From the NCBI GenBank assembly GCA_051294375.1, contig JBJCIZ010000836.1, positions 1 through 64,000 of the forward strand: 64,000 bases of DNA. Direction: 5' to 3'. Of this stretch, positions 36,876-59,799 are shown piece by piece. Numbering within the stretch: position 1 is the stretch's first letter; each line of letters opens with the position of its first letter. The notes below the pieces were generated by a model. That model had not been told where the DNA came from, made no database searches, and saw only the letters and a list, made by a program, of their open reading frames with translations. A program made the translations under genes and the position numbers. The stretch comes from Paraspadella gotoi. Lineage: Eukaryota > Animalia > Chaetognatha.

Positions 36876-37093
36876 CTGTCCAAGTAACCACTGACGCAGG
36901 TTCAACCTCCACCCCCCAGGAGGAAGAACGAGACCTTGCTGTTGAAGGACCGACCGCGCCCACCACAGTGCAAACGGGAGATAAACAGAAGCGTCTCAAG
37001 AACGTGATGGTTACATCGCAGGAGTATCAAGCCACCAAAAGCAAATCGGATCCGAGGCTCGGGCGATCTCCGCGGAAATGGAATCGCCGAATC

Positions 37094-37338: not shown

Positions 37339-38566
37339 TCTGGGCAAGACTCACCACTCCTCCAAGAAGCCAAAGCCACCAGCAACCACGCCACCCGAAA
37401 TGGATCCTGCACCCTCAACCTCCACCTCTGCCCCCGCCGGGCAGATACCTCCACCACTCCCGGCACCCAAGGGCAATTGGACGGATTGGCGAGATCCCGA
37501 CAAGATGGCGCCGAAACTCGGTTTATATATATAATTTATATTCAGCTTGTCATCATCGATATCCTTAAAATTGAGTCAGGACAGTTATTAAATGTTTTGT
37601 TTACTTTTTATCAAAACAAACAAATATCCTCTATTTTACTTTGTCTCCTTCTCTCTCTCTCTCTCACTCTTTCTCTCTATCTCACTCTCTCTCTTTCTCT
37701 CTCACTCTCTCTCTCTCTCTCTCTCTCTTTTTATGCAATTGCGACGATCCTTATGCTTTTAAGTTTTTTTTAACTTGCATCATTTTTTCAACTTGTATAA
37801 TTTTTTCAACTTGCATTCCATCAAAACTTTATATCTAGCTTCTTCAATCACTTTCCTACCGGCTCACAAAATTTCATCTCAATCTATCATGGGTTAAAAT
37901 AAATAAAAAGATTCAAGTAAATGTGACTCATATTTTTTTCATTTAAACTCATTTCCACTGGTACGAGAGATATACTATTACACCTTCTGGCCATCTTGAT
38001 AAGGTTTGTGGGTACTCGAAACTCAAAAAACTTATCAGTTTATCAAGATGGCCAGAAAGAACGCTGTCGTAACGATTTTCTAGCTGCTGATTATCACTCT
38101 GTGAAACCGCCAGCTGCGTTTTGATTTCAGTGGATCGTTCAGCCGATTGTTTGGCTGACTGAGGCGTGGTCACAGTTTGACCACACCTTGACCAAGATAA
38201 AGATTCGCGGCGCTCAAAATCGAAAAAACTTATCAGCTTATCAAGATGGTCAGAAAGAATGGTGCAACCGCACTTTCGTTTCTGCGAATCGATTCGACTA
38301 GACGTTCTTATCTTTTTTTTTGTCTGGCTGACTGTCTGGCCGACTGCCAGAAAAAATTATGACATAAAAAAATGCTGACGTAACACTTTTTTAGCCGCGC
38401 GAAACCGCCAGGTGTGCTCTTTCTCGTCGAACCTCTTTACGTCTTTTGTTTATTGATAGATCTACACAGTGTCGGATATTTTTCTAGTTTTATTAGTATA
38501 AATTGGTCAAAAAAAATCAACAAATAATTTTAGTTCCCTTTATTCACCCCCCACTCTCTTTATTGT

Positions 38567-39115
38567 TTATTCAAATAAGTCAGGCATCGCGTTTGGATTT
38601 TTTAAGACGAATGGAATGTTTGGAATTACTATGCTAGATAGTTTTACCATATTCTGTTGACTTTCGCTTTCATTAGTTTCTCTACTTTTATTTTCATCAG
38701 TTTCATACGTTTTTTCAATTTTGGTTTCTTTTTTATCAATATTTCCAAATGTTTTTAATGAAGCGGGGTTTTCCTCATGTAGTTCTATAAACGTAGTTTC
38801 TTCGTGATAAGTGTCTTCGTCGGAAGAAGACGACGACAACGGTATCACCGAATTCTCAAAACCTTTATTATTTTTACTTTCCAGAAAGGTAAGTTTATAA
38901 TTCTCCTTAATTTCTTTTCTTTTTTTCAACAGAGATGCGAAGGTTTTTTGAGTCACTTCGCCATCGAATTCCACTTCTTCACCCGAATCGGGATCTTCTC
39001 CCTGTTTCTTCTCATATTTTCTAATACTCTTATTTTTTCTTTTATAGTATTTATTAATGCTCGACGTTCGTTTGGGCGGAGAGGGTCGATTTTTTTTAAT
39101 TTGATGTTGAATCAA
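38567..39115 (-). CDS. Lys/Glu/Ser-rich ORF, probably the 3' part of the 39117-40050 gene
   Basis: 182-codon open frame in AT-rich DNA starting 1 nt after the upstream stop. A candidate acceptor TTTTTTACAG lies at ~39150. The exact junction is unresolved. Confidence 0.45.
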   Translation of the reverse strand: MIQHQIKKNRPSPPKRTSSINKYYKRKNKSIRKYEKKQGEDPDSGEEVEFDGEVTQKTFASLLKKRKEIKENYKLTFLESKNNKGFENSVIPLSSSSSDEDTYHEETTFIELHEENPASLKTFGNIDKKETKIEKTYETDENKSRETNESESQQNMVKLSSIVIPNIPFVLKNPNAMPDLFE

Positions 39116-39116
39116 T

Positions 39117-40050
39117 TTATTTACTTTTAATAAAATGGTGAAAACCCGACTGTAAAAAATTTATCACCAAATTCATCGTTACATCGCCTTCTTCCTTTAT
39201 TCTCTGTTGCAGTTTAGCAGTTTTGGTTATTCCCAACGAGATGGTCGAATCTTCATAACCTATGCAACTAGTCCATGGGTTAGTTATTTTTGAAGCAGTT
39301 TTATTTTGTTCCATCTTACTACTAGTATGAATTCCATCATCATTTGTTATCCTCGTTGTCATCATCGTTGTCCAAGTTAACTCCGTGGAACTTAACATTT
39401 TGCCGCTCGTGCTTTTTGTTTTATCAATTTTGGTCGTTTCGTCGGTTCCAGCTGTTTTGTGGTGGTGGGTGGTTCTATCGCCGCTTCCATCGGTCGTCGT
39501 CGTCTCTTCGTCTACTCTCCTACCCGTTGTGTAATCTACTTCCGTCTTTGTCGAGCCACTCGTTGTTTCCATCACCTCCCTCGTATTCCCTCTGGTCGTT
39601 CGCCAATCCCCAGTCGTCTCCACTCGCCCGTGGGTTGTTCGACAATCCCCAGTCGTCTCCACTCGCCCGTGGGTCGTTGCAGTTACCTCCTTGGTCGTCA
39701 TCGTCATTTTGTTTGTCTCGCTCACTTCTTTCGTTTTCATCTCGCTCGTGGTTGAACTTATTTCCGATATCGTTCGATCCGTGCTCCATGGTGGTGTCAT
39801 GATGGAAACCGTCGTCGTCCTAACTATCGTCGTTGACTTTTTCGTCCACCAGAAAGGGGGACGCGTTTTCTTTACCGTTGACCCTTTCGGTTTTACCGTA
39901 AGTATCTTAATGGGTTTTTTTTTATTATTTAAACAATATTTTAATAAAATAAAGTATTACTAACGCGTTTACCTGATCGGGTTCCACCACGCAAAAAATA
40001 TCTTTTAACAGTAAGTAAAAGATTAACGAGGTTGTAAGGACAGTTTTCAT
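39117..40050 (-). CDS. Signal-peptide-bearing Thr-rich (mucin-like) glycoprotein (exons 40050-39973 and 39905 onward)
   Basis: Exon 1 encodes MKTVLTTSLIFYLLLKDIFCVVEPDQ|GTAAAC. It splices in phase 0 at ..ATTAAG| into the frame of ORF 39117..39800, which has a TTHGRVETTGD duplication and many Thr. Confidence 0.65.
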
Positions 40051-40296
40051 TTTTTAGCCGTTATTACAACGTCGATTTTGGATCGAGACTGATTTCTTTA
40101 AAAAGAATCGATAAGGCCAGCGGAACGTAGCCAAAGATTTTTTTGATAATAGAGAGATAGAAGGAAAAAAAATAAAAAATACACACTGTGTAATCACGAA
40201 ACCGAGCCACTTATTCTTGACTTTTGACATTTCAAGTGCTTTCAATATGGGTATAAATAAGACCTTTTTTCTCACCTATTTTACAGACCCAACAGT

Positions 40297-40563
40297 ATGT
40301 CTATGCGTTGTCCAGTCTGTTACGAAGATTTTTCTGCCCAATGGCGCACCATCGTTTGTCGGGAAGGCCACCCAGCCTGTATTTTTTGCTACGAAAAATT
40401 ATTAATTAATGATAAAGATAACGCCGTATGCCCAACTTGTAAGACTAATTTATTTACCCTTTGCCAAGGGTGCAAAGAAAATAAAATTAATCGTACGACG
40501 AGAGACGTTGAACTCGTTCAATTAATTGATGTCATTACTCTAACTGGAGGGCTCTGGGCCTAA
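40297..40563 (+). CDS. C3HC4 RING finger protein (small gene or terminal exon)
   Basis: CPVC-x12-C-REG-H-PA-CIFC-x13-CPTC followed by CxxC. The acceptor TTTTACAG at 40286 precedes it, and AATAAA follows at ~40606. Confidence 0.75.
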   Translation: MSMRCPVCYEDFSAQWRTIVCREGHPACIFCYEKLLINDKDNAVCPTCKTNLFTLCQGCKENKINRTTRDVELVQLIDVITLTGGLWA

Positions 40564-40905
40564 CTGTGTCTCACGTCTGGTAGAAACCGAACGGAATGGG
40601 AGGAGAATAAATGTATTTCACAACTGAGGTCTAAACTCTATCTGAAAAATAATAAAATGTCCGAAAAAAGGGAGAGAGAAAGAGGCGGAGAGAGAGAGAG
40701 AGAAGATGGACTGAACCTAAAACTTGAACGCGACCCCGAATCCCTGTGAGGAGGATGAGGAGGGAGGAGGAAAAGAGAGAGAAGAGGAGCTAGAGACCCG
40801 CGTAGTCTATTGGCCTTCGATTCTGGGCTCCTTGTTTGCGTCAAGATGGCGTCTCGGGCCTTGAATGGCGTGAGACGTCATCGTGCTGGTGCGTAGTGAG
40901 AATGC

Positions 40906-41064
40906 CTAACCGTGCTGAAAGTGTGAGTGGTGGAGAGAGGGGAGAGTGAGAGAGGGTGTCCGGGAGAGGGAGGGGGGAACAATGGTAGATTGAAAAAAAA
41001 AATATATGCATATAACAGTAACGCTAACAATAGTAGTAATAGAAGCAAGATAACAAATTTTCAT
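40906..41064 (-). CDS. Possible small membrane or secreted protein
   Basis: MKICYLASITTIVSVTVICIYFFF hydrophobic segment followed by a Pro/Ser-rich tail. It is co-oriented with the env-like gene. Support is weak. Confidence 0.25.
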   Translation of the reverse strand: MKICYLASITTIVSVTVICIYFFFQSTIVPPSLSRTPSLTLPSLHHSHFQHG

Positions 41065-41323
41065 TGCAGGTGGCGATGATGTGATAGGGTGATTAGAGTT
41101 AATTGTTTGTTTATATTGATGATGTTGCAGAGATGACAAAATTGTATAAGCAGTACAAAACTAACAGACAAAAGGACATATAAGACAAAGGACAAAAAGA
41201 CAAAGAGCTACTTGGCGATGATATTGTCATGCAATTAGTTGAGTTGGGTTGTTACTTTTTTTTCTTTTATTGATTTTTTTGCGAGCCGCTTTAGCGTCCT
41301 CATTTTCTTCTAACTACGAAACT

Positions 41324-41461
41324 CGGCGTCACCGGAAATGGAGGATTGGCGTCACCAGAAGTGGGCGTTGCCGAGAATTGGCGTCACCGGAAGTGGGGGT
41401 TGGCGTCACCGGAAGTGGGCGTTGCCGGGAGTTGGCGTCACCGGAAGTGGGGGTTGGCGTT
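41324..41461 (+). repeat. Five copies of (TT)GGCGTCACCGGAAGTGG with alternating spacers
   Basis: Directly visible. The core contains CGTCA and CCGGAAGT. Confidence 0.85.
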
Positions 41462-41769
41462 CAGAAGGGGTGGCGGCGCGGGAAGGCGACGATCGCCCTC
41501 TCGTCGTGGTTGGGCGGTTCCCTGAGGCCCAAAGCTCTTCTCGGCGGTCCTCTTTGGTCGATCGCCGCCACGATGGATTCCAACTCTTCTAGGCGGGTTA
41601 GAATCGCGTTCAGCGATTCCAAGTTGTTCCCGACGATTTCTTCCAGGTCTTGGGTTTGGAGTGGGGGATTTGGAGCGGGGTCTTCATAGCAAGGGGATTT
41701 TTTGCTAAGTTTCGCTTCTTTCAGGTAATTTTCATAGTCAACTAGTATTTTGAAAATACTAATACGCAA
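41461..41769 (-). CDS. Coiled-coil ORF, probably the frameshifted cytoplasmic tail of the env-like glycoprotein
   Basis: It overlaps the env-like stop by 11 nt and lacks an ATG. It contains the heptad-like segment LEEIVGNNLESLNAILTRLEELESIVAAI. Confidence 0.45.
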   Translation of the reverse strand: MRISIFKILVDYENYLKEAKLSKKSPCYEDPAPNPPLQTQDLEEIVGNNLESLNAILTRLEELESIVAAIDQRGPPRRALGLREPPNHDERAIVAFPRRHPF

Positions 41770-42562
41770 GGAATTTTATTGGCAATATGCCGCGGTTCAG
41801 CGCGAGCGATACAACCACTACTGCGATGATCGCATAGGCGGACAGGTAAGCGATAGTTAGTTTTGGCCATAGATAGCGAATTTGGAGAGTGAGCCCATGG
41901 AGTGAGCTGTCACTCTCATATTCTTCCATCTCAATCAGTTTATTGATGGATTTTGAGTTAAAGAGGCCGCTAATATCGTCCTGAAAACCGCCTTTAAAGA
42001 GGCCTTTTGTGATGGATTGCATGGTGAGCTCCATGAGAACTCCCATGTCTATGTGCTCTGCCGCTTTTCTGGCATATTGCCCGATTCTTTCATCTTTCTC
42101 ATCACATCTCATCTCTGGGCTATTGGTAAGTAGCAGAGACGTTGCATTGTGCAAGAATCTTGTCTCGCCATTGGGCATTTCCACTTTTTGCACAGTGTGG
42201 CATGCCTCTTTTTCACGTATGGGCCTTACCCATGTTTCATGGCACCTGATAAGCATGGCTCGGTCGTCAACGACGACGGCGACAAGGCCTCGGTCGGCTT
42301 TTGCATCTACTTCATTTAAGGATACGAAGCCGTACTTTGAGAGCAGGGTATAAACCCAATCTCCATGCCATATTGTCTGGAAGGTGTAACTAAGCACTTC
42401 GAACTGGGCTTGTTGTGGGTACTTTGTCACAACCTTGCCAAGAGGCTTTGTGTGGAGGATGCTCGTGCGGGGGTCATAGCAATCGAATCCTGTGAGGGTC
42501 TCGATGCGGGAAGGGAGGAGGGAGGTGAGGAGGAGAAGGTGTAAGAGGTGAGCAGGGGTCAT
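41759..42562 (-). CDS. Env-like type I membrane glycoprotein resembling chuvirus/Bel-Pao-associated (class III, gB-like) glycoproteins, internally shortened
   Basis: Signal peptide MTPAHLLHLLLLTSLLP, then LTGFDC, then the block AVVVDDRAMLIRC-x13-CHTVQKV..RFL..TSLLL..C. A membrane-proximal segment ISGLFNSKSINKL and a C-terminal TM follow. The ORF is intronless with TATAAAT ~65 bp upstream. Homology was recognised by eye. Confidence 0.6.
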   Translation of the reverse strand: MTPAHLLHLLLLTSLLPSRIETLTGFDCYDPRTSILHTKPLGKVVTKYPQQAQFEVLSYTFQTIWHGDWVYTLLSKYGFVSLNEVDAKADRGLVAVVVDDRAMLIRCHETWVRPIREKEACHTVQKVEMPNGETRFLHNATSLLLTNSPEMRCDEKDERIGQYARKAAEHIDMGVLMELTMQSITKGLFKGGFQDDISGLFNSKSINKLIEMEEYESDSSLHGLTLQIRYLWPKLTIAYLSAYAIIAVVVVSLALNRGILPIKFLAY

Positions 42563-42734
42563 TTTACTGATCCCTCTTTTGTTTGTTTTGCTTCTCACCC
42601 TTATTTTCATACCTCGAAACATATTTATATTTCTTTATTCTAGACGCGTTATGATTTGTTTACTGGGTTTTTTTTATATTTTTTTTTTTTATTATTTTTT
42701 TTTTATTTCAGTGGATATTGCCGGGAGGTTGGTA

Positions 42735-44582
42735 TTAAGGTTTACTGATAAAAAAAAATTGCCCGCTTTTTTAGTTGCCTCTTGAAGCTGAACCTTAATC
42801 AAATTTAGAGTTTGTTTTTTTTGAAACGTGAAGGGAATACACTTTCTTTGACATAATAATAAATTGTTACAAAGCTTTATGCAATTCTTGTTTGAATGAT
42901 CCAGGCCTTAAACAAGAAATATAATTACTGCTTTTAAAAATTCTTACGTTTTCTAAGTGAAAATATAAAAAAACTGATAAAATCATCGAAAGATGATGAT
43001 GATGATGATTTTTTATAGTTTTTCTTATTTTTTTGACACACTTATCGTAAAAATATTTTAAAAGAATCATACTTTGTGTAGACAACTTTTTTATGAGCTA
43101 TCTGAATCTGGTCTTAAAATTTAAAAATTCCAAAAAAAATTTTTTGGCCTTTCCTATCTATAAATAAATATTAAAAAATTAATTACTCGGGTATATAGCC
43201 ATATTAGAAATTTTTTGTCCATTGAAAGTATTCTTAAAAATGTCTAAATATTCGTTTGAGCATGTACTCACTCTAAATTTTTGACTCACCCCATTGAGTG
43301 CGGCTACCCCTACCCCAGTCGCCCTTCCCCCTTGAGACTCCGCTGCGATCATTCGTAGTTACACTCCTTTTGGAGTGGGAAGAGCGGCGACTTGAGAAGA
43401 AGAAAAATAGGATCCCTCGATCTCTTCCGTAAAACTAAACCTGTTCCTATGACAACCGATAAACATGATGACTGAAGAAAACGCCATTTGAAATTCGTTG
43501 CCTCGCGACGTGTAAACATTTAGATAAAAATATACTTTTTTTGATTAACAATGAAAACAAACAATTAACTAGGTGTTGTTTGTTTATTCAACTATATATA
43601 TCCCTGTTTACCCTCTCTCAGGGACGATAAATGTCTAAAACTATGTGAAGCTCTAACTAATAAACTATTGTAAATAAACGTCGGCTTAAGCCTACNNNNN
43701 NNNNNNNNNNNNNNNNNNNNTATATAGTTGGAATAAACAAACAACACCTAGTTAATTGTTTGTTTTCATTGTTAATCAAAAAAAAGTATATTTTTATCTA
43801 AATGTTTACACGTCGCGAGGCAACGAATTTCAAATGGCGTTTTCAGTCATCATGTTTATCGGTTGTCATAGGAACAGGTTTAGTTTTACGGAAGAGATCG
43901 AGGGATCCTATTTTTCTTCTTCTTCTCAAGTCGCCGCTCTTCCCACTCCAAAAGGAGTGTAACTACGAATGATCGCAGCGGAGTCTCAAGGGGGAAGGGC
44001 GACTGGGGTAGGGGTAGCCGCACTCAATGGGGTGAGTCAAAAATTTAGAGTGAGTACATGCTCAAACGAATATTTAGACATTTTTAAGAATTACTTTCAA
44101 TGGACAAAAAATTTCTAATATGGCTATATACCCGAGTAATTAATTTTTTAATAATTTATTTATAGATAGGAAAGGCAAAAAATTTTTTTTGGAATTTTTA
44201 AATTTTAAGACCAGATTCAGATAGCTCATAAAAAGTTGTCTACACAAAGTATGATTCTTTTTAAAATATTTTTAGATAAGTGTGTCAAAAATAAGAAAAA
44301 CTATAAAAAATCATCATCATCATCATCTTTCGATGATTTTATCAGTTTTTTTATATTTTCACTTAGAAAACGTAAGAATTTTTAAAAGCAGTAATTATAT
44401 TTCTTGTTTAAGGCCTGGATCATTCAAAACAAGAATTGCATAAAGCTTTGTACAATTTATTATTATGTCAAAGAAAGTGTATTCCCTTCACGTTTCAAAA
44501 AAAACAAACTCTAAATTTGATTAAGGTTCAGCTTCAAGAGGCAACTAAAAAGCGGGCAATTTTTTTTATCAGTAAACCTTAA
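42735..44582. repeat. ~865-bp inverted duplication around a 25-N gap
   Basis: 42735-43600 is the near-perfect reverse complement of 43721-44582. The gap is at 43696-43720. Confidence 0.9.
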
Positions 44583-45677
44583 AAATTTCATCCAACACAG
44601 TAAAGTCATTTTTAAACGCAAATTTTTAATTTTTTTTTTCAAATTAACAGCACCTACCTCAGTGTAATACTAACAACTAAAACCAAGTCATTCCATTTAT
44701 GTTATAGAATCAATTAATGATAAAACATAAACATTTATGTAGAGAGAGAGCAGAACGCTTATATAAGGATGTCTATTATCATTTTATACAAAAAAGAATG
44801 ATTAAAAATTTTAAAATTGTAAAATTCAAAGACATTCGTCCCCTGGCATCTGAAGTTGGGTCCACTTTGATAACAACCCTCAATGTGTGCCATAGACTGC
44901 CACAGATTCCACAGACGGACCAGCCTCATTCTCTGCTTTTGACATTTAGTTTCTGTTCCCCAGGTTCAAAAACTGGTTCAAAAAAAAGACTGAGAAAAAA
45001 ATAAATAAACACTTTGCAGCATTCCTCCTTGTGCTTTCCCAGCCACAGCCATTTGTTAATTTAAAAAAAAATTGTACAAAAATTTGGATAAAACTTTAAA
45101 GATTGGTAAAGCAATCATTTAAACTAGAAATGAAAATAGATTTCGGAAAAGTGTAACGATTTTAAAGTTCTTTGCTCGACTTTCAGTTCTGTAAAATCTA
45201 CAGAAAAAAAAAAAAAAAATAAAAAATAAACAAAAAGAGTTGGAGCTAAAAACCGTTTGAAATAAAAATAAACTAAAATTATTTTTTTATAAGTATGGAA
45301 AGGTGGGAGAAATTCTATGAGAGGGATTTTGGAAAATGTTACTAGTTTTCAAGATATTTAGAATTTTAATGCCAAAATTTTCTTATTCTTTTTTTTTCCT
45401 ATGAAGATAAGTGAATTTAAAAAATCCCTTTCATAGAATGGGACCTTGTCCTCAAGTAAATTTATGTAAAATTTCATGAAAATCCCCTTAGCCGTTTGGG
45501 CTGCAACTCTTCCGAATGGTTTCTTTTATTTAATATAGTATTATAAAATTCGAAAAAACAGCAATGGATTCGAAGAGAAGATAAAGTGAATACATTTTCA
45601 GATCAACTGGACCTCTACTTTTCGAATACAAGCTTTATTTAATCCTAATTATAACTTTTGGCCAGTGATCCCAGGCC
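44412..45677 (+). mobile_element. Second copy of the TTAA (Kolobok-like) non-autonomous element
   Basis: TTAA|GGCCTGGATC ... GATCCCAGGCC|TTAA, collinear with 10279-11539. Confidence 0.8.
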
Positions 45678-46081
45678 TTAACTTTTTATGCTCTATCAGA
45701 ATCCATCAAAAAAATTTTAAGATTTAAAAAAAATATTTTTAGCTCTATATAGTAATATAATATTTTTAATTAGGCGAGTACCCTCAGAAGAAAGCATTTT
45801 TTGACAAAAAATATTTTTAATACCATAATCTATGGTCATGATAGATTATTTTAAAGCTGTATACATTAGCATTTAAATTTCATCGGCTATGGGGGAAGAG
45901 GATTTGCTCTTCTCCCTCGTGTTTACTTGCATGTATTCACTACTTTTACGGCGGTCTTGGGGGGGGGTAAAGCGTTTTGGTCTTCCATCGCTTTTTCGCC
46001 TTTTCACAACCGCTCTTGGTCTTGCCAACGGAAGACAAAAAAAATTTTTTTTTAGTCAAACTGATAAAGGAAACCGGAGAC

Positions 46082-47987
46082 ATGCCCTGCAGCTCTCGGT
46101 CGCAGGGAGACGGGCGCTGCCCGTGTGGCGCCGGCGCCATGCCTTACGGCGTCGTTTCTCTCGTTGGTCTGCTCTCCTTCCTGGAGAGCCTCCGGCCGTC
46201 CGCCGAGTTGCTCGGCCGGATAACGGACGCGGGTCCGCCCTATCTGCCTCGCGGCGTCTGGGCCCTTATCCGGTCGGCGACCCTGGCGTCGCAATCCGTA
46301 TCGGGCCTCGCCTACCCGGCCTTGTGCCGGATGGTGCAGGCCCTGATTTCCAGGTGTGGGATCGTTTTAATATTTCCTTTATCTCCTTCTTTCCTCCTTT
46401 TATTTCTCTCAAGCTTTTATTGTTATCAGTTTCATTTGTTTATTTTGATTTTAATTATCACTATCTTTTTGCTTAAGTTCGAAAATTTTTTTATTTTTGT
46501 TTGTTTTCGCCTTTTCTTTTTTTTTTCTAACGAAAAAAATTCTTTCTTTTAGCACCATGGAGTCCGTCGGCGGCTCCACTTATACTGGGCCCGCCTCGGC
46601 GGTCTCGGACGGAACGGGGGCGGCGGGAGACCTGCGCTACTACCGGATTGTTAATCCTGGCGAGCAGGTCCTCGTCGTCGCCGGGGACGGCGCCGCCGAG
46701 ATTGTCGCTGAGGCAGTCGTCGGGGCGGCTACGCCTTCCCGGATCTACGTCGGCGACCTGCCCGCACCCGGTACCATGCGGGCAGGCGACGGGCGCCAAC
46801 CTCTTCAACGTCCAGTGTAAGTAAGGTGGCGATTATTATTTACTGTTTTCTCAAGTTTTATATATTTTTTTGGAAATTTACTATATGTATTTTACATTTG
46901 CATAGTTATTTTCTTATGTTTTTTTTTGGTTTATTTCAAATTTATTTTCGAATTCACTTATTTCTTTCTTTCGAATTTAACTTTTGTTCTAAATGCGGGA
47001 TAATTCTGGGAGGTCTAATGTTTAGTTGTTACGGACGTCCAACATTTAAGAGAAAAAAAAATATTTGTTTACAGCTCCCAAGTTTGGCCCGAAGTCGGGT
47101 TCGAGGATATTTCGCCGGCCGAGGACGACGAGGATGATGACGAGGTCGAGGTGGAGGGGGCTACGGCGGGCGGCAGCGGGGCCAACGGCGTCGGCGGCCC
47201 TTTACTCTCCGCCCAACCCTCTCAGACTTATCAACCGACGCCGCGCTCGGCGTTGATGCAGGCGGCCCCATCAACGTCGGCGTCTACACCCACGAGTGCC
47301 TCGACGGACCTAACGGGGAACTTCGGGCTCCCGGAAACGCCGCTGCAGGACGAGGGACCCTCTAGGCGTCCGCCCCTTGAGGACTTCCTGTTCAGCCTCT
47401 CCGGGAGCCAGGGGTACGACCCCGAGTCAAATTTCGCGCTGCCCGGCCGCGACGTTCTCAACTTGACCATGACCACTGTCACGATGACGACGACTCTGAC
47501 AACGACGACGGCCCTGACCACGACGACGGCGTCGGCCGTCGTTGCGCCAAGCCAGGCCGAGTCCACGGGCAGCACTTTTCGCGCCTCGGCAACGGCGTAC
47601 GGCTTCCCGGCGGCCAAGTCCAGCCGCGGGAAGAAACGGCGCCGCCCCGGGAGGCGCGGCTCTTGTGCCCCCAACACTCCACAGCCGTGGAGTGGGCATC
47701 ACCATCATGCGCCGTGGGGGCAGGGTCACGGCCGTGGTCAGCCGGAAGGGCAGCAACATGCGCCGCCCTACGGCTATAACGGCGCCCAGATGGCGGCCAC
47801 GGCCGTCTCCAATTGGCGTCCATGCGCCGACGCCCACCTCTACTCCACCCCATGCCGCATCGCTGGGGACGTCAATAACCCAACGTGCGTGCACCGCCTC
47901 GGTGGAGGTGGGGCGCGCAGTCGCGGCAATGGCGGTCACGGCGGGTCGGGTTGGCCGCGCGGGGAGGGCCGCGGCCCCCTCTCTTAA
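46082..47987 (+). CDS. Three-exon orphan gene, ~482 aa, with acidic tract, Thr run, NLS-like motif, Cys/His cluster and Gly/Arg tail (exons 46082-46353, 46553-46816, 47075-47987)
   Basis: GT-AG introns (CAG|GTGTGG..CTTTTAG; GT|GTAAGT..TTTACAG), both phase 2, join ORFs 45977, 46497 and 47151 into one frame. Exons are GC-rich and introns T-rich. Confidence 0.75.
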
Positions 47988-48501
47988 ATGTATATGTATG
48001 TGTATAGCATTGTTAGCTTTTAGTTTATCTTATTCCCTTTTTCTCTTTTTTGTTTAGACTTAGCTATTGCTTGACACTGTTATTTTTTTTGTTTATTGTT
48101 ATCGAATATTGATTTTGACTGTTTTTTTTTTTGATTATGCCTGTTTGCTGTGTTTACTAATTTTTCATGTTTACTGCCATAATAAATATTGACGTAGAAG
48201 TTTTTATTGAAAAAAAGGTGGAAATTATTATCTTCTTCTAGCATTTTGTTTAGTCTCGACATCTTAAAGAGTTAGCTCGATTTAGTGACGAGAGAAAAGG
48301 AGACGAGAGTGTTTATAAATGTACTTAATTGTTTGGTCGCCGAATCTTTTCAGCTTCAAGGCGACAAACAGAAAGGGAAAGGAAAAAAAAAGGCGAAAGT
48401 CGGTCTGTCCTCATGTTATTTTTTTTTTCGACGGCTGAGTTAAATTTCGGAACGGGAGAGAACCGAAAGCGGATAATATTTTTTGTAAAATCGGGTGACG
48501 T

Positions 48502-48736
48502 TGTGGACGCAACAAAGTTTCAGAGTAAGAATGATTTATTCTTCAACAACGTTATAAACAATAACAGTCAAAATGCTCAGATGCTAAGTCTTATTACAAT
48601 GGTATTTACAAAGGTCAACGTTTGACCATAAAGGTCAACGTTTTGACCATAAGTAAGTTGGGGGAATTGCAGCGAGATAAGTTTGGTAAGGTCATGTGGT
48701 TTGACGAGGGTTGCGTGTTCTTGATGTTCGTCCACA
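48502..48736 (-). repeat. 3' LTR
   Basis: TGTGGACG...CGTCCACA 8-bp terminal inverted repeat. Confidence 0.9.
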
Positions 48737-48799
48737 CATCCCCCCAAGCCTTTGACCGGGTGGGGAGAAGGCTTGAGAGTATTGAATTGCATCGTCTTT

Positions 48800-51700
48800 T
48801 TCATCGTATCTTCCGGCGGCTTGAAGCATCGCGGAAGGATGTGAAAGACCAGGTATTGATGCAGATTGTCGACGAGCGATTTGGCGGCGTCGTGGAAAAC
48901 GCGAGTGGCGCGCTTCCGTTTCCGGAGGTGGGTGCGGGGCGGGGCTGCAGTGGTAACGACGCGGGGGCGACCACGTGTCGCGCCTGCGTGCGGATGCGGG
49001 GGTGCGGATTCGTCGGTGACGACGGGTTTCAGTCGATCGACGGAGATACTTCGACGCCGCGGCCGGTATTCATTTTGAAAGTTTTTGGGCCACGTTCGAG
49101 GACGTTGTAAGGGCCGTCATAGGGCGGTTGGGCGGCGTCGAATGCCACGCGTCGGACATAGACGCGTGTTGACGTCTGCGAATGTTTCCGCGGACATGAG
49201 AAGGCTCGCGCATGCCAAGCGGCGGGCAGAGGGCTGCATGAGAGCGACATCTGCGCGGAGATCGTCGAGGATTCGCGGAGCGAGCGGCTGGCGTCGGCGT
49301 CGTTGTCGGGACTGGAAGTAGCTCGGCCAGGAGCGTCAGCGTCTCGCCAGCGTTAATTCGCGCGGGGAGGCGTCCGAGTCTTCTCGTGGTGTTGCGCGGA
49401 GACTCAGAGAGTCCAAGGGAGTTGCGCCAACCAGTTATTTCCAGCGCGCGTCGCAGCGGGCCCGAGGCCGCTTTCAGCGTCCGATGAAGGCGCTCGACCA
49501 TCCCGTTGGATGGGGTGGTAGGCGTTTCGTCGTGGAAGGGTCAAAGCCGAACTACCGCCGCCACTTGGCGCCCATATTTTCGACGTGAATTGGGCGCCAC
49601 GATCGGTGGTGACGATCGGACGGGACGCCAAAACGCGAAACCCAGTTTTGTAGGAAGGCGGCGGCGACGAGTGCGGCGGAGATTGTCGCAAGTGGTGCCG
49701 CTTCCGGCCAGCGCGTGAAGACGGTCAATCATCGTCAGAAGATGAGTATGACCAGAGACGGCTGGCAGCGGCCCCACCAGGATCGATATGAACGTGAGCG
49801 AAACGTTGGCTGGTGGTTCGAATTTCTGGAATGGCCGCGCGGACGTGGCGCTGCGTCTTGGCGCGCTGACAAGTGTCGCATGACCCTGCCATCGTCCGAT
49901 GTCGGATGAGGCGATGGCCATACAAGCGCGTCGTCACGAGCTTTTTGGATCGCGCGAACTCCCGGTGGGCGATTGCCATGGGTGGCGTCGAAAACGCGCC
50001 GGCGCCATGACGCTGGAACAATGTGGCGGCTCGGGAGCCGTGAGATGTCGCAGCATGAGTGTCGTGTTGCTGATTGGAATGTTTTTGAGTCGGAGCCGCG
50101 TATGAGGGTCGTTTGAGGAGCCGCTGGACATCGTCGTCGGTGGCTTGATCAGCCGCCATTGCCTCAAAGTTGACTTGGAAGGCGCCGACGGCGTTGACGG
50201 TGGCGGCCGATGTCCTCACGCTCTTTTTGCGCGTTCAAGATCGCTTCAGGTTGATCTGTAGGGATTGTCCGCGTGGCGGCGCTGACGGAGGAAGTTGGCG
50301 GGCGGGAAGAGGCATCGGCGACGACGTTCGCCTTTCCGGCGATATGACGGATGTCGCCGGTATTTCGGCGATGCCCGCCAGTTGATAGGTTTGCCTCATG
50401 GTGTGATGCTCGGCCTTTTTCCGCAGCGCCGGCACGGAGCGAGATGTGGTCGCTAAAAAGTGTGAAGCGGCGTCCTTCGACGTATGGGCGGAAATGGCGA
50501 ATTGAGCGTGGGCGGCGAGAAGCTCCTTGTCAAAGGGTGCCATTTCGTTGATTGGGTTTCAGGGCTTTGAATGAAAAACCCAGGGCTGCCATTGGCCCGT
50601 CAACAAGCTGTTCGAGGACGGCGCCTCGACGAGCGACGTCAGGAGGCGTCAACCAGTGGAGCAAGGGGAGGCGCCGTCGATAGGGTGGACCAGCATTTGT
50701 AGAGTCGGCTGAGGGCGTCCTTGATTGCCTGGAAAGCGGCGGTCTTGCGGGGCCGCCCATTTTAGCGCGCGCGGTTTTCCGCGGAGAACTTCAAGAAGGT
50801 CGGTCGAGATGATGTGCGGCGTGGGGCACGAATCGGCAGGTAGTAGTTGAAAACCCCAAGAAAGCGTTGAAGTTCTTTTACAGTAGTGGGCGTGGCCATC
50901 TCGCGTAAGCGCTCTCACCTTTGACGGAAGTGGGCGGACGCCATCTTTGTCGACGTGTAGCAAGAAACTCCAGGCTGGAGGCACCGAAAACGCATTTAGC
51001 GGCGGTTGACAATGAGCGCCGTTGTCGGCGAGCGCGTTGAAGACAGCTTTGAGATCCTCTTGATGCTCTTCGTGTGAGTGGATGCCACAAAGCAGGTCAT
51101 CCAAGTAAGACGAAGACGTGGGGAATTGCGCATAGGACTTTGGTCCATCATGCGTTGGAAATCCGCCGGCGTTTTTCAACCAAATGCATTGAAGAGGAAA
51201 CTCTAAGGGCCGGCCGAACGGCGTAAAGATGATTCGCCGTTTTCATGACATCTTCTTTCGCGACAGGGATCTGATGATATCCCTTTGCAGAGGTCGATCT
51301 TCGAGAAGACTGTCTTCCCGGCGACGTCGGCGTTGAAGTTCCATAGAGTTGGCGGATCGGTAACGGTCATCGACGGTGACGCCGTTGAGACGTCGATAGT
51401 CACCGCAAGGACGAAGAGAGCCGTCGGGTTTCCGAGTGAGTGTAGCGGCGACGCCCAGGCGGCGTTGAGCGCCGGATAATCCCGAGTTCCAGCATTTTTC
51501 TCGAACTCGGCCTTGGCGGCAGCGAGCTGATCTGGGGCGCAAGGGCGGCGGGCCGGGCAAATACGGGCGGACCTTTCGTTGGAATATGATGCTCGACAAC
51601 CGTGCTTTGGTGGTGCCGAGTTTGAAGACAGTTTGGTAGTTTCTGGTCGCCCATCAAAAAGTCCAGAGTAAGGCGTCGCGAACGTGTTAGAACGCGGGGG

Positions 51701-52176
51701 CGGCGCAGCGGCGGCGGCGTCGTGGGCATGGCCGGAAATGACCATGTAGTCATCGAGGTCGAGAGAGAATACGGCGTTGATGTATCAACGCCGAGATGGT
51801 GCTCCATCAAAAGTTCACGCCGAGGAATGGGCGTGGCGACGTCGGCGATGATAACGAGATAGGAAAAACGCGTTTTCCCAATCTAATCCCCATCTCTCGG
51901 ATGCCGAAGGTTTCGATGGGCGTGTCTGTGGTCACGGCGCGGAGTGGCGGGGGATTAGCTAGCGGCGGAGCGCCGCTTTGACAGCGGCGGGGTCCGCTTT
52001 TGGCGCGGCGCGTATCGGACGGGAGGCGGGGATGAGCGCGCCTCGGAACCGCCGTCGACGAGCCACTCCAGGCCGCGTCGGGGTCGCGCACAAAGAAGAG
52101 TTTCGAGTCGTTTTCGGCCGGCGACACGGGCGACTATCGGCCGCCGGCGTTGGCGTTTGACGCGTGCCATGGGCAT
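48800..52176 (-). pseudogene. pol: pol (frameshifted)
   Basis: Fragments EWLVDGGSEA, RKPDGSLRPCGDYRRLN, KTVFSKIDLCKG, YLDDLL, PFDKELLAAH, TTDRGAQF, VERLHRTLKAA and PPYDGPY are spread over different frames. Confidence 0.9.
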
Positions 52177-53382
52177 GGGCGGCCATCGCGGTTAGTCCCG
52201 TGGCATTTGAATGCGTTTGGTGCCAAAGTATATAGTGGTAGAAGCACTTGGCTTCTCCCATGGGCGGTTCGCGGGCTGGCTGAGAGCGGGGCGTCAATGT
52301 TGGGCGCCGTTGCTGCTGCTATGCGCTGCTGCATTGGCGCTGTTGTGATGGGCCGCTGCTGCGAGGAGGGGCGTTGTGTTGCGGCGTGGCGGCGGTCGTC
52401 GTACTGCGTTTGCGTATGAGATGGCAGCAGGTCGTCGTCGCTTGCCGATTCGTCCTTGAATCGCCAGTGGCTCGTCCACTGCGACTTCGATGGAGGTGAC
52501 GGCGTCACCGAGATGAGGGCGATCAGAGGCTTGCGGAGTTGTCCGGAAGGGAGAAAAACTCATCGGCATCTTTGCGATGTCGACGGGCCGTCTTGTCCTT
52601 TCTGACGGCGTGCTCTCGGACGTCTAGAGAGGGCAGGCGGAGCGGCAATATGGGCAGCCTGATGTTGTCGATTGTGAGGCCTTCAAGGACGGCGTCGATC
52701 GCGGAAGGTGCTGAGAAGGTTTTGTGACGCCTTTCAGCGTCGTCATCTTCAGCGCCGTTTGCGGCGCGCGCTGTTGGCATCTTCACCAATATATTTTTTG
52801 CAAGTGGAGAACCAGGTTTTATGAGGCGTTGGGACATCTCGTCGATGCGGAGACCATGTGGAATAAGTCGGTGCGGGGAGATGGGAATGGCGTGAGGATT
52901 AGTGGCCTTCTTCTCGCCGGTCGGTGACGCCGGTGGCGCCAAATCCACAGCGGCGGTGGTCGAGCCATCTTACGATGTGTGTCATGGGTCGAGCGTCGTG
53001 AGTTTTTGGATTCCTCCTTCTTGCCCGTAGTGGGGCTGGAGGAAGGTCGAGGATTGGTTTGGCGTTGCCGCGGGGCGGCGTCGCTGACGCCATCTTCACT
53101 GATGGGGGCAAACTCCGTAGAGGCGGTTGCTGCATCCGCTGAGAGGGAGTTGGTCTTTCGATGACCGAGGCGAGTTTTTCGTTTATTTCAAAATCATGGA
53201 ATAGTTTTTCGATTTGCGTCTCGGTAGACGTCGCGGATGTCGAGGCGGCAGCGTGTGGAAAGCATCGTCGCGGCCGCGCGTCGAGTGGGCATGGCGTTGG
53301 CCGTTGTTACGGGCATCGTTGGTTTCCTCTTCGTCGGCCGGCGTTGCAGGCGTGAGACCTTGGATGATGAGGACGGCGGCAT
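52134..53382 (-). pseudogene. gag: gag (frameshifted)
   Basis: Fragments LPSLDVREHAV, ISYANAVRRPP, KCFYH and ASNANAGGR* match the gag of the plus-strand element. Confidence 0.75.
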
Positions 53383-53700
53383 TTATAAAAAAGATTTAAT
53401 GAAAAAATTTATTTGCGTTAAAAATGATTTTATTTTTTAAAAAAATGATTAGATTTTGAAAAGGAAAAAAAAAGATATTCGTTTGAAAAAATGATTTGAG
53501 TTGAAAACTGGTTTGAAAATTGATTCGAATCGAGATTTTGGAAAAAAAAATAATTTGGCCAAAGAAAAATTAAAAATAAAAAAAAAACGCCGCAAAAGTT
53601 TGTTTCGTTTTCGTGAGTTGTAGTTTTTTCTTTTTCTTTTTGTTTTTTGTTTGTATATTTTTTTGTTTTTGTTTTCGTTTTTTACATCGGCTAAACCACG

Positions 53701-53930
53701 TTGGACCGGCAACAAGTTTCAGAGTAAGTAATGATTTATTCTTCAACAACTTATAAACAATAACAGTCAAAATGCTCAGATGCTAAGTCTATTACAATGG
53801 TATTTACAAAGGTACGTTTGACCTAAAGGTCCACGTTTTTGACCATAAGTAAGTTGGGTGGAATTGAGCGAAGTAAGTGGTAGTCATGTGGTTTGACGAG
53901 GGTTGCGTGTTCTTGATTGTTCGTTCCACA
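53701..53930 (-). repeat. 5' LTR
   Basis: Direct repeat of 48502-48736 with many single-base indels. Confidence 0.85.
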
Positions 53931-53937
53931 ACGTTAA

Positions 53938-54003
53938 AACATAAGTAATTCTGGTCGCGAACATGAGTAATCAGGGACGCGAACATAAGTAATCAAGGTC
54001 GCG
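53938..54003 (+). repeat. Three 22-bp tandem units AACATAAGTAATxxxGGTCGCG
   Basis: Directly visible just outside the LTR. Confidence 0.8.
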
Positions 54004-54401
54004 GTCGCTTTATAAAGAAAATACGACTTTTTGTCGTAGTAATAAAGTTGAGTCGCTAGCATTTTTTTTATCGCGTATTTCGCGAGAACTCGCACGAGGC
54101 AAAGTTACGATGAATCATGGCTCGCGTCTGACGTCAGCAGGGGGCGGTTTTCGTAGGCGGAGCACTGGCCAGTTGCTCAGCCTTGGACTGGAAAGAACGC
54201 CGGCTCCGTGCGATGAAAAAAAAAAAATATCCGGGGCGCCAGAGAAGTGGCGCGGCGACTTCCGGTGGGGCGGGGCGTTTCCAGGCGGCGCCGCCGCACT
54301 CTCAAAGTCGTCGGTAGCCGAGGCTCGCACCCATCTGGCTATCTGGTTGCCAACCGACCTTGATTGTTTATGTTTATTATTCTCTCATTTCTCAGCCGGC
54401 G

Positions 54402-54996
54402 CTAAAGGGCGTTGTCCGCCTCTTTGCGCAACTTTCTCATTGTGCGTCTGTGAACCACGCGACGCGCGGCGCCATCTTCTGGTTCTACTAAATATTCATC
54501 GCCTTTTTATTTATAACAGACGCTCGTTCATATTTTGGGTATAATTTGAACTCAAGCGATTTGACTTTATTCGCCTTTTTTTTGTACAAATTTCGCCAAA
54601 TCAAAACTTTTTCTCCTATTTCATATTCGATTATATTAGTTAAAATTAAACTAGGCGTCGTTTCTATATTACGAGCCCGGCATATTTTATGTAGTAGGGC
54701 CTCAATTCAAAAATTTTTCTCTGCCAAATAACTCTCACTCGAGCCCTCTGGCGGTTCCGCTTCGGCGGTTTGAGAGCAAGGTAAGACCGGATCACGCCCA
54801 TAGAAAAGTTGGTGGGGTGAAACTAGCAAGTCGTTTTCGATCTTTATGGGGGCAAGATTTATCGCCCTTACCACCGAACGCCAAGTTTTAGTCCAAGGCT
54901 GTCCCGATGGTTGTAAACGCCGAAAAAGATCGATTAGGGTAGCGTTAACCTTCTCAGACAAATTCGAATTTTTTTGTGATGGTCTGAAGAAGTTAC
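54402..54996 (-). pseudogene. C-terminal half of a retroviral-type (rve) integrase, not part of the adjacent LTR element
   Basis: Reads VTSSDHH(K)NSNLSEKVNATLIDLFRRL..W..VVRAIN..SPHQLFYGRDPVLP, then YEIGEKVLIW..KLYPKY..V..GDEYLV..VVHRRTMRKL. This reading needs two frameshifts and passes one stop. Confidence 0.7.
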
Positions 54997-55128
54997 AAGT
55001 AAAGTGAGAAGGAAATCTTTCGGGGCCAACTTTAAAACGCGTTTTTGCTGAGACGGAGTCAATTTTTTAATTTGTTTCAAAAAGGGAAAATTTTTTCTGA
55101 ACCTGTCGACGGCCGCGTCGTTGCTCAT
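54997..55128 (-). pseudogene. N-terminal part of a small basic protein resembling a conserved Maverick/Polinton (adintovirus) ORF
   Basis: DRFRKNFPFLKQIKKLTPSQQKRVLKLAPKDFLLTL follows the R-x-K/R-N-h-P-h-L-K-x4-T-P-x-Q-x-K-x-h-L-x2-A-x2-D-h-h-x2-L pattern I recall for Maverick small proteins. TATATAAG lies ~55 bp upstream. Confidence 0.5.
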
Positions 55129-55373
55129 TTTTTTACAAAATACACTTGAGTGAAATAGGGATCTGAGGGTAAAAAGTTACTTATATACTGAATTTTTTGA
55201 TTACCTAGATTATGAATATTTATCAATTTTAGTTGAACTTATCCTGAGCTTTGATATCGTCAAATATTTCGACCAAACTGAGAGGATGGCGAGGTTCCAA
55301 TTGTCGACCCTGGTTAATGAGGGAGGAACGATCTCGTCTCAAATTGCATAAAATTAAATATAAACATTGAGCT

Positions 55374-57890
55374 ATAAAACTTTTTTGCCTCATTTTTTTG
55401 GCTCTGGCCGTCGCCGATCAACCGTGGTTCCGTCGGCAAAATGAATCTCAGAGATTCTACGTTAGTTTATTGTCATAAGTTAATTGGGAATTTAAGTTTG
55501 CGAAAATATTTAAATTAACTATTTTTTCCTTTCTTTCCCTCCCCCCACCTTTTTCAGAATTGTATCGAGAGATATTGCGGCGAAGGAAAGACGGAATGTA
55601 AGCGAAAAGAGAGAGAAAAGAGGAAGAAGCCAACCAACTAACGCCATCTACGTTTTTTCTTTTGTCTCTTGGCAGCCTTCATACGTCGACAGTGTTGGCG
55701 CTTTACCCGCGCCGTGCTAGAGCGCTTTCGTCAGATGCTGTGAGTTTATTTTTTTTCGCCTCGAAATCTTAATCTTTCGCCTCGAATTTTTAATCTTTCG
55801 CCTCAAATTTTTAATGTTTCGCCTTGAATTTTTAATCTTTTGCCTCGAATATTTTTTCATCTCTCAGAGCTCGAGATCGATCCGACGAGGCGACGACGAC
55901 CACGAAGGAGACGACGACGACGGTGAGAAGGACGACGACGGCGAGAAGGATGACGACGACGACGACTTGGCGACCGGCGCCGAGGAGGGTGACGACGACG
56001 ACATCCTGGCGACCGGCGCCGAGGAGGGCGACGACGACGCGGCGACCCGCGCCGAGGAGGACGACGACGCGGCGACCGACGCCGAGGACGACGACGATGC
56101 GGCGACCGGCGCCAAGGACGACGACAACGACGACGACGTGGCGACCAGCGCCGAGAACGACGACGCGGCGATCAACGCCCGTCAATTGGCGTCCGGCGCC
56201 CGTAGATCGGCGTCCAGCGCCTTCGAATCGGCGACCGGCGCCAGAGGTTAGGCGACCGGCGCCAATACCTACTTTTCCATGGCGACCGGCGCCAAGGACG
56301 ACGACAACGACTCGGCGTCCAGCGCCGAGAACGCCGACGACGATACGGCGACCGGCGCCAAGAACAACGCCGCGATCAACGCCCGTCAATTGGCGTCCAG
56401 CGCCTTTGGATCGACGACCAGCGTCCGTAGATGGGCGTCCAGCGCCGGAGGATAGGCGACCGGCGCCAATAGCCACTTTTCCGTGGCGTCCATTGACGAG
56501 GCGACCGGCGCCAAGGACGACGACAACTCGGCATCCAGCACCGAGGCAACCGGCGCCAAGAACGACGACTCGGCGTCCAGCGCCGAGAAGGACGACGACG
56601 ACTCGGCGACCGGCACCGACGACGACGACTAGGCATCCAGCGCCAAGAAGGACGACGACGACTCAGCGACCAGCGCCGGAAGTTCGGCGACCTGCGCCGG
56701 AGGTTTGGCGTCCAGCGCCTTCGACGAGACGACGAGCGCCCGTACCGACTTTCCCATGGCGACCTTCTACACGACGACCAGCGTGGACCAGGAGTGGACG
56801 ACGCCCGCGCCGCCACCGGGGAGAGTATGGGTGGCGAGGACGCCGGCGTCGCTCGTGGCGAAGCCGACTTCGCCAATTTGGGTGGCGCCGTGGCCATCAA
56901 GTTGGCGACGGCGGCGACGAACAACAACAACAGCAAAAACATCATCATCCACATCATCCTCAACAACTACAACATTCTCTACATCAGCCTCCCCAACAAC
57001 CTCCACAACATCCTCTACAATATCCTCCACAATAACCTCTACAACAACCTCTACAACAACCACCTCCATAACATCCTCTACAACAACATCTACATCATTA
57101 ACTCCATTAACCTCTACATCAGCCTCTACAACAGCCTCTACATCATCCCATCCATCAACCTCAGCTTCGTCAACCTCTACATCACTCTCTACTACATCAT
57201 TATCCACTCCATCAACCTCTACATTTCACTCTACAACAACATCATCCACTCAATTGACCTCTACATCATACTCTACAACATCATTCAATCCATCAACCTC
57301 TACATCACACTCTACGACAACATCATCCTCTACAACAACATCATCCAGTTCATCAAGCTTTACATCAACTCGACCCATTACATCATTCAAACTAACTACT
57401 TCAAAAAAGTAAGTTTTCAAAAGTCTAAAAAAAAATTCGCCGCGAAACGCGATTTTTTTGCCACAAATATTTCTAATTTTGCCTCAAATCTTTTTTTTCA
57501 GATTCGAAATTCCGAGAACGATGGCGATGACGACGATGGTGATGACGACGAGAACGAGGGTGGAAGAGGAAGAAGATCAAAGGGCCTTTTGGCAGAGCAG
57601 TTTAATGTGAGTAATAATTGATATTTTAAAATTCCAAAAAAAGAAATTGAAACTAGGATAATGATTTTATATAAAATATCTTGAATATTTGTTTCTACAG
57701 CATCTACATAATAGCTATCGCGAGCGTGGTGGGGGCGCTCGGCGTCTTTGTGGGCGTCGGCGTCGGCGTCGTCTTTAGGCGCCAACTACGGCGCCTTGTG
57801 GACCATGTGCGGCGGCGGCGACGAGGAACTCGAGACGTTGGGGTTTTCGTGGTGGAGGGAGAGGGAGAAGAAAGAAGAGGGAGGGGGTGA
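55374..57890 (+). CDS. Six-exon type I membrane mucin-like glycoprotein (exons 55374-55460, 55558-55597, 55676-55739, 55868-57408, 57502-57606, 57701-57890); ATA at the start position and one frameshift near 56790
   Basis: Signal peptide (I)KLFCLIFLALAVA, a small 3-Cys domain, ~25 RPAP/Thr repeats, a Ser/Thr stalk, TM IIYIIAIASVVGALGVFVGVGVGVVF and an Arg-rich tail. All five GT-AG introns are phase-compatible (0, 1, 2, 2, 2). Confidence 0.75.
55754..55850 (+). repeat. Intronic ~21-bp tandem repeat TTTCGCCTCGAATTTTTAATC
   Basis: Five units fill most of intron 3. Confidence 0.8.
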
Positions 57891-58276: not shown

Positions 58277-58315
58277 TGTGGCAGCAACCACACGTGACCT
58301 TCTGTAACCAAACGT

Positions 58316-58357
<42 letters not shown>

Positions 58358-58522
58358 CTCTCGCTCAACATACGATTTTACCAAGTTGTCCTCGTTGTCC
58401 TTACTAGTTCTGTATTGTCTCATTGTTTAGACTTAGCATCTCAAATTGTTAATGTTATTCTTTATTGTTGGAGAATAAATCATTCTCGATCGAAACCTTT
58501 GTCGTAATTATCTCCTGCCACA
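58277..58522 (+). repeat. 5' LTR with an internal (CT)n tract
   Basis: TGTGGCAG...CTGCCACA termini and an internal AATAAA. Confidence 0.95.
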
Positions 58523-58524
58523 CG

Positions 58525-58539
58525 TGGTGAACCCGACGT
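58525..58539 (+). promoter_or_regulatory. Primer binding site (tRNA-Trp)
   Basis: TGGTGAACCCGACGT, 2 nt after the LTR, is complementary to a tRNA-Trp 3' end (ACGUCGGGUUCACCA). Confidence 0.85.
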
Positions 58540-58666
58540 AATTTTTCTCCCTCCTTGAAACGAAAAAATCAAAAACAAAAATGAAACTTTACCTCGCTTT
58601 CGCTCCAAAAGAATAACGACTTTCGCTCGTCCACAAAACGCCAGTCAACTAAGAAGAGTTCCCAAG

Positions 58667-59799
58667 ATGCCCGTCAACACCCGCAACGTCTCTCGGTCCG
58701 AGGCAGCGAGGACGCATTCCACGACGCCGCGACGTCGGCATCGTTGCCGCCAACGTCGCCGCCATGGACCATCGACACCCTCGCGCAAATCGTGATGCAA
58801 TTACATGACGACATGCAAAAACAATTGACCGCCCTCACGGAGAAGGTCAACAAAAATAAGGTGAATTCAAACGACGAGTCGTCCGAGATCCCGCCCTTGC
58901 GACCGGAAGCGACGACTACGACGCCGTCCCCAGAGGCAACGCCATTACAACACGACCAAGAACGCCGAAACTTCCGAGTTTCGACCCAGACAACATCGAC
59001 GAATGGATCGACGCAATTGATAACGCCTTCGAGGTTGCCGACGTTGTCGATCCCCGCGTCAAGAAGGCGCACACGCTCGCGGCGATCCCGACAGATCGCC
59101 ACCGTCATCTCAGTCCAACGCGTCAAACAGGACAAATCACTCAATTCATACACAAATCTAGTAACTCACCTCAAAGAGATCTATGGCGATGGAAAGACAC
59201 AGCGCGCTGCTAAGCTGCTGAAGATGACATCGCTTAAAGGAAGCACTCCCCTCCAGCACCTCGCTGCTCTGAAGTCACAGTGCCAAGGCCTCAAAATCGA
59301 CGACATCCTCAAAGCCCTCCTCGTCGCCTCCCTCCCAACTTCAGTTCGTGACCACGTCCTCAAAGAAGAAGAAGACGTCGATGTCTCGCCAAAAAAAAGC
59401 CAACTTAATTTCTTCACTCCCTCAGGACAGCTCCGCAATCAAACAGCTTCAGTCAACGCCCTGACCTTCACAAGCCCGTTTGAAGACCCAGCGGATGAGC
59501 AGGTTGAGCCACCAGAAGAATTCGCAGATCCAGAGGCCGACACTACGCCCATCTCCTATGCCAACGCCGTCAAGAGGATTTACTCAAGACCGCCGCTACG
59601 CCTGCGGAACCAGCAACAATCACGACGCCAACCACAACAACAACAACGACGTCCACCACCATCGGATTTCCGCACACGAAACCCTCTTCCTCCCGGCGAA
59701 AAGAAGTGCGTCTATCACTATGTCCATGGCCATAAAGCATTCCAATGTGACGGACCGCCGTGCAGCATGGCGTCAAATGCCAACGCCGGCGGCCGCTAG
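58667..59799 (+). CDS. gag: Gag, with apparent frameshifts near 58700, 58955 and 59093
   Basis: ATG at 58667. KLPSFDPDNIDEWIDAIDNAF lies in an alternate frame. The C-terminal knuckle is CVYHYVHGHKAFQCDGPPC. Confidence 0.85.

Follow-up and report, generated by a model that had tools for sequence, protein, structure and literature searches.

Positions 38567 to 57890 of a 64,000-nucleotide (nt) stretch of the Paraspadella gotoi genome (contig JBJCIZ010000836.1, assembly GCA_051294375.1; the whole stretch is hereafter called the window) carry a cluster of compact genes, which includes an envelope (env)-like gene related to viral glycoprotein B (gB). A sequence-only reading had interpreted this interval as a candidate relic of an enveloped, Maverick-like integrating element. 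The window is rich in AT, dense in repeats and contains four N gaps. The GC content of the interval is 42% in the left part, 52% in the block of an orphan gene and 47% in the right part, compared to 29-33% in the flanks. The interval genes are packed tightly, and segments 38.0-42.7, 46.0-48.5 and 53.9-58.2 kb contain no high-copy host repeat except microsatellites. TATA boxes are enriched upstream of the starts (three of six versus 9% of 398 background ATGs, P=0.012). The compact genes proposed by the sequence-only reading are mostly real, given that reading units are recovered for the Thr-rich, RING, 482-aa orphan and mucin-like genes. None of nine window proteins was present in an exact look-up, and no relatives of the locus were found in viral, metagenome and prokaryote collections. 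The left part is present in nine sequencing runs from one organism and three studies, with no RNA run among the listed runs that contain it. The features of the locus are collected in Table 1.

What kind of protein does the env-like gene encode? The env-like open reading frame (ORF; 42562-41759 on the minus strand) has a signal-like start and one transmembrane segment (TM). It is a single exon without an intron, which corrects the proposal of "spliced glycoprotein genes" as far as env is concerned. The protein matches the Pfam family PF24664 (Monjiviricetes_fusion) with a sub-cut-off E of 9.7e-5, aligning residues 90-155 to positions 366-429 of the 653-position model. A full HMMER scan detects four homologue clusters (E 5.5e-10 to 2.3e-4), which derive from ENA contigs no longer than 0.7-7.8 kb; several are about mRNA size and may originate from transcripts. 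Word-index protein searches with env, at near and longer lengths, return no match. Two homologues, P0124 and P0130, pass the PF24664 cut-off, and P0121 and P0125 give no PF24664 hit; P0129 is a complete homologue added from cluster members. In all five complete sequences (the window protein and four homologues), the first conserved Cys lies 202-221 residues before the TM, three further Cys residues are kept, and 75-91 residues separate the first and second conserved Cys. Pairwise identity within this short gB family is 24-43%, and a furin-type site is absent from the window protein and from all four complete homologues examined. A one-off internal deletion as the origin of the env-like ORF is rejected because the four homologue clusters have the same short architecture. 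P0122 contains an extra N-terminal region before the crown (residues ~25-150) with faint Ig-like matches, a sequence feature that would fit a binding role.

The predicted fold points to the same relationship. The structure model built from a nine-row alignment has a mean predicted local distance difference test score (pLDDT) of 54, with residues 61-130 at 62-80, and a single-sequence fold gave an unusable pLDDT of 37. In a Foldseek search of the PDB, ranks 1-7 are all domain IV of pseudorabies gB (best E 3.6e-3, probability 0.93). In the BFVD, each of the 23 matches at E<=0.001 is either a viral glycoprotein or an unnamed entry, and the 23 viral models matched are mostly chuvirus-, xinmo-, borna- and entomopox-type glycoproteins. 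Two results count against the fold assignment: no PDB match of the model reached E 0.001, and VIA-align returned long-helix matches only (best Z 5.0). PDB sequence searches with the env-like protein yielded nothing useful. The gB link of the env-like protein is upheld by the PF24664, gB domain IV and chuvirus-type model matches.

The domain IV of gB is composed of a short N-terminal piece and a C-terminal piece, and the four conserved Cys residues of the short gB family presumably form the two bridges of this domain. In common with class III fusogens (PF24664, chuvirus-like G and herpesvirus gB), the window protein has a leader, a domain IV-like beta region, conserved Cys residues, C-terminal helices and one TM, so that the crown of domain IV is followed by the helices and membrane anchor in the class III order. 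In contrast, none of the five sequences offers space for domains I and II with their fusion loops, and the ectodomain extends for ~210 residues after the first Cys rather than over the 653-position model. Because of the narrow spacing between the first two Cys residues and because the matching stretch begins near model position 366-378 of 653, we infer that domains I, II and most of domain III are absent from the family. With no room for domains I and II, the short gB family likely cannot fuse membranes and is predicted to bind surfaces instead. The short form thus gives no support to the term "enveloped" that had been applied to the element. The conserved crown-only gB family is the solid result of this analysis. 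It appears to be new: no description of such a short form was found in the searched literature, from which subscription papers and bioRxiv supplements, where one may yet exist, were out of reach.

The window copy of the gene is broken. Its frame ends just after the TM, and the cytoplasmic tail is encoded in another frame (41461-41775) that shares 34% identity over 80 aa with the tail of P0122 (E 6e-7). A profile made solely from the homologues aligns end to end with the env frame (E 6e-31) followed by the tail frame (E 4e-7). Short-read contigs across the break are identical to the window in three of four runs, and the frame break is therefore real, interrupting the gene directly after the TM. 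Read contigs stop at the site of the break (41732-41761) in all four runs, and the tail region may have a second version at another site. Directly downstream of the tail frame, 54-nt tandem repeats occupy 41325-41460.

Table 1. Features of the Paraspadella gotoi locus (window coordinates; TM, transmembrane segment; MITE, miniature inverted-repeat transposable element; LTR, long terminal repeat)
Feature	Position	Strand	Remarks
Likely left edge of repeated module	37966..38260		Host repeat ends there; starts AG-AG
197-codon Lys/Glu/Ser-rich open frame	38567..39160	-	Without own start near 5' end
Thr-rich protein, hydrophobic leader, no TM	39117..40050	-	One 67-nt GT-AG intron, 39972-39906
88-aa RING-finger protein	40297..40563	+	TATA box 45 nt upstream
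Cytoplasmic tail of short gB-like gene, different frame	41461..41775	-	Profile and P0122 match
267-aa crown-only gB-type glycoprotein, leader, four Cys, TM	41759..42562	-	Single exon; PF24664, four homologues, Foldseek
Inverted copy of 43721-44582	42735..43598	-	97.7% identity; likely assembly artefact
25-N gap	43696..43720		
MITE, GG...CC ends	44412..45677		TTAA on both sides; 92.6% copy at 10274-11543
482-aa GC-rich orphan	46082..47987	+	GT-AG introns 46354-46552 and 46817-47074
Ty3/Gypsy LTR element	48502..53930	-	Later insertion, 4-bp duplication
Possible 3' half of retroviral-type integrase	54488..55066	-	One internal stop; around/after catalytic Glu only
64-aa basic ORF, 15 K/R	54934..55128	-	TATA box 59 nt upstream; overlaps integrase-like frame
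Six-exon type I mucin-like membrane gene	55374..57890	+	Five GT-AG introns, matching phases

The likely left edge of the repeated module lies near 37966, where a host repeat has loose ends (37965-37966), and it carries an 18-37-nt motif in three copies, two direct and one inverted. Two viral contigs match the 19-nt edge motif by chance: beyond it they have nothing in common with the window, and one of them belongs to a tailed phage. The secreted Thr-rich protein of the sequence-only reading is confirmed by its spliced ORF, and so is the RING finger by matches to several RING models, all under the curated cut-off (best E 1.8e-4). No family was found for the Thr-rich ORF or for the neighboring ORF 38567-39160. 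No consensus donor joins the latter in frame, and it may be a detached end of the Thr-rich gene; contigs of other copies cease matching at 39146 in two of four runs. The depth data come from four runs and cover ORF 38567-39160, env and the orphan. Relative to env, the contig depth over ORF 38567-39160, which is not a true copy number, is 2.8, 15.6, 17.6 and 6.8, and the contigs there carry 9-26 differing letters, a pattern seen in all four runs. The env/orphan depth ratio is 0.6-1.6, and most of the listed records there differ at 0-2 positions. The left module appears to be multi-copy, whereas env and the orphan do not.

The two halves of the interval meet at a suspect join at 43.7 kb. The arms of the inversion differ by no substitution and 15 indel events (12 single-base), compared to 31 substitutions between the two MITE copies, and the left arm (42735-43598) holds no more of the MITE than its initial ~170 nt. 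The inversion thus probably arose when a single sequence was entered twice on the basis of noisy long reads. Gap filling with noisy long reads is described as leaving "overfilled" gaps, which go along with inversions and errors of scaffolding (PMC3504050), and the join looks like an assembly patch that may have arisen in this way. Adjacency of the two halves is therefore doubtful. A palindromic TTAA transposon, or another transposable element with terminal inverted repeats (TIRs), was rejected for 42.7-44.6 kb because the arm contains only part of another MITE. The MITE and the inner Gypsy element are later insertions, as had been read from the sequence: the former has TTAA flanks and a second copy, and the latter a target duplication. 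The LTR pair of this Gypsy element differs by 4 substitutions versus 16 indel events, and some breaks in the right half, and many frameshifts in this part of the scaffold, may therefore be long-read errors. A near-intact Ty3/Gypsy element with a 1117-codon pol frame also occupies 58277-63391 on the plus strand; its LTRs differ by 3 substitutions, it has no obvious target duplication, and it shares ~71% DNA identity with the inner element. Both Gypsy elements are closed units at least 6 kb from env. No gag, reverse transcriptase (RT) or LTR is attached to env, no env linked to gag-pol between LTRs was found, and an integrase profile finds nothing near env.

The orphan has exactly the 482 aa proposed, with its two introns; no family was found for it, and a ~90% paralogous contig occurs in one of four runs. 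The proposed rve integrase relic is a weak candidate. A profile of 120 gypsy integrases scores 3.3-3.8 bits on 54710-55066, a result reached by 3 of 1000 shuffles; the match falls where the profile would place it, directly behind the catalytic Glu, and five neighboring frames score at chance. This signal is confined to the 3' half and is not significant in a window-wide profile scan. The frame has no Pfam hit, and a pairwise comparison is equaled by 64 of 300 shuffles. The 64-aa ORF has no match from any family or relative search made, and its assignment as an integrase core was rejected (368 of 1000 shuffles). The overlap of the two frames would fit a deletion joint. Directly downstream of the integrase-like frame, 22-nt tandem repeats occupy 53938-54003. 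The mucin-like gene encodes, in order, a leader, a small Cys region, Thr/Pro/Arg and Ser/Thr repeats, a TM and a basic tail. Its five introns have fitting phases, but it lacks an in-frame start codon and its frame shifts inside repeat exon 4; no family was found for it.

Outside the interval, a GC-rich orphan lies at 26729-29010 on the minus strand, apparently with three exons, a short hydrophobic exon 1 and an exon 3 region that looks frame-broken. Paralogy with the 482-aa orphan was not accepted, as the best of 7 pairs reaches 13 of 300 shuffles with a likeness of only 8 residues. A possible retroelement scrap at 36160-37140 on the plus strand, perhaps Penelope-like, is interrupted by a small MITE at ~36320-36870.

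Is the interval part of a Maverick? By definition, a Maverick has eight intronless core genes together with TIRs and a 6-bp duplication, and its core is flanked by accessory regions whose ORFs vary (PMC8097293). The interval resembles such accessory regions in its run of diverse small ORFs and its AG-type start, but it lacks the defining features of intact elements. Nematode Mavericks are described as carrying an 866-aa gB-like protein, MFUS-1, and, next to the integrase, GC-rich cargo genes with introns (bioRxiv 10.1101/2022.07.12.499685), and the interval likewise combines a gB-like gene with a GC-rich intron-containing gene next to an integrase-like frame. However, MFUS-1 contains domain I, for which the 267-aa window protein has no room, and the nematode elements possess pPolB, capsids, ATPase and TIRs, none of which was found here.

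We tentatively favor, at close to even chances, the interpretation that the interval represents the decayed accessory region or regions of a Maverick-type integrating element that has lost its core genes and into which the MITE and Gypsy elements inserted. This origin is supported by the integrase-like frame beside a GC-rich intron-containing gene, by the AG-starting edge with subterminal repeats, by the repeated left module and by a GC content above that of the flanks. Several results weigh against it. No pPolB, packaging ATPase, major or minor capsid or cysteine protease family matched the tested ORFs and read-through frames, as the sequence-only reading had cautioned, and no long unexplained ORF is left in 34-64 kb; the core genes were possibly lost by deletion. 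Neither long TIRs nor a 6-bp target duplication was found in the window: instead of TIRs with (AG)3 or (AGT)2 ends, there is a single edge at 37966 that starts with two AG units, where Mavericks are reported to have three, and that lacks an inverted partner. The depth contrast indicates that env is not amplified with its neighbors, the 43.7-kb join is suspect, and the integrase profile, built from gypsy integrases alone, gives a weak signal. The likeness of the N-terminal 45 aa of the 64-aa ORF to a small Maverick protein is only putative. gB-type env genes are also carried by Gypsy and BEL/Pao elements (PMC13524379). The anatomy of the interval agrees with published accounts of Maverick accessory or cargo regions. 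The locus falls outside Mavericks by their defining features and may still work like an accessory region.

Another, somewhat less probable explanation is that the cluster is a patchwork, brought together by nested insertion, deletion and a mis-joined gap. Its pieces would be the left module, which is repeated; a short gB pseudogene, nearly single-copy and derived from an LTR element; an orphan from another transposon; a gypsy-type integrase scrap; and a mucin gene. The unequal contig depth of the parts, the inversion without substitutions and a window full of repeats and other GC-rich orphans (for example, at 26.7-29.0 kb) speak for a patchwork. gB-type env genes are also described as common in Ty3/gypsy and BEL/Pao elements and occur among arthropod endogenous viral elements (EVEs). 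The gB-type ENVs of Ty3/gypsy errantiviruses are described as five-domain proteins whose fusion loops lie in domain I. Like the window env, they occur in an invertebrate mobile-DNA setting, but they sit with gag and pol between LTRs (PMC13524379). Jingchuvirales glycoprotein EVEs of arthropods resemble the window env as endogenous chuvirus-type glycoproteins without remaining virus (PMC10084718), whereas the short gB is conserved and internally shortened, with its own leader, TM and tail, and is not a random fragment. Against a patchwork stand the tight gene packing, the TATA enrichment, the lack of high-copy host repeats other than microsatellites in the three segments named above and an env without attached gag, RT or LTR.

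It is improbable that the short gB instead represents a host family that was domesticated to block entry, as other co-opted env genes do, and that the cluster is a decaying host surface-defence locus. The same short architecture at such divergent identities, homologue contigs of mRNA size and env contigs with 0 differences in the listed records of four runs would suit domestication. However, the adjoining non-coding DNA also shows 0 differences and thus gives no sign of selection, the window copy is broken, env has no intron, and an integrase-like scrap is among its neighbors. Least probable, and in our judgment very unlikely, is the strong form of the sequence-only reading, in which the interval is one partly deleted copy of an enveloped, integrating DNA virus of an undescribed kind with env as its fusogen. 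The gB relationship, the presence of several surface proteins together and the precedent of nematode Mavericks speak for it. Against this, the env-like protein is less than half of 866 aa and too short to hold domains I and II, core genes and element ends were not found, and the two halves meet at a suspect join.

If the favored accessory-region interpretation holds, intact members of the short gB family would be seated in the membrane with the crown displayed. The crown may attach particles or cells, or may block full-length gB-type fusogens through receptor occupation or mixed trimers. Shielding and modulation of the host cell would fall to the mucins and the RING protein, and the element could be moved by its own integrase or by core proteins from complete relatives. 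A further step, which we regard as unlikely, is that the locus is a deleted member of an undescribed Maverick-like invertebrate lineage in which crown-only gB takes the place of a fusogen and serves for attachment or for blocking superinfection, in company with mucins and a RING protein. The main text on adintovirus accessory genes names no mucin, RING or glycoprotein (PMC8502044).

The cluster as a whole is important only if it is truly one element. The short gB family has a meaning of its own. gB-type envelope genes in mobile elements are taken as signs of infectivity, and the crown-only form indicates that an "env" match need not mean an enveloped element. Retention of the crown and anchor, loss of the fusion half and a single length maintained at 24-43% identity point to a second use of the gB fold, likely in binding or in blocking entry. 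As a naturally occurring equivalent of an isolated domain IV construct, the short gB family is open to direct testing.

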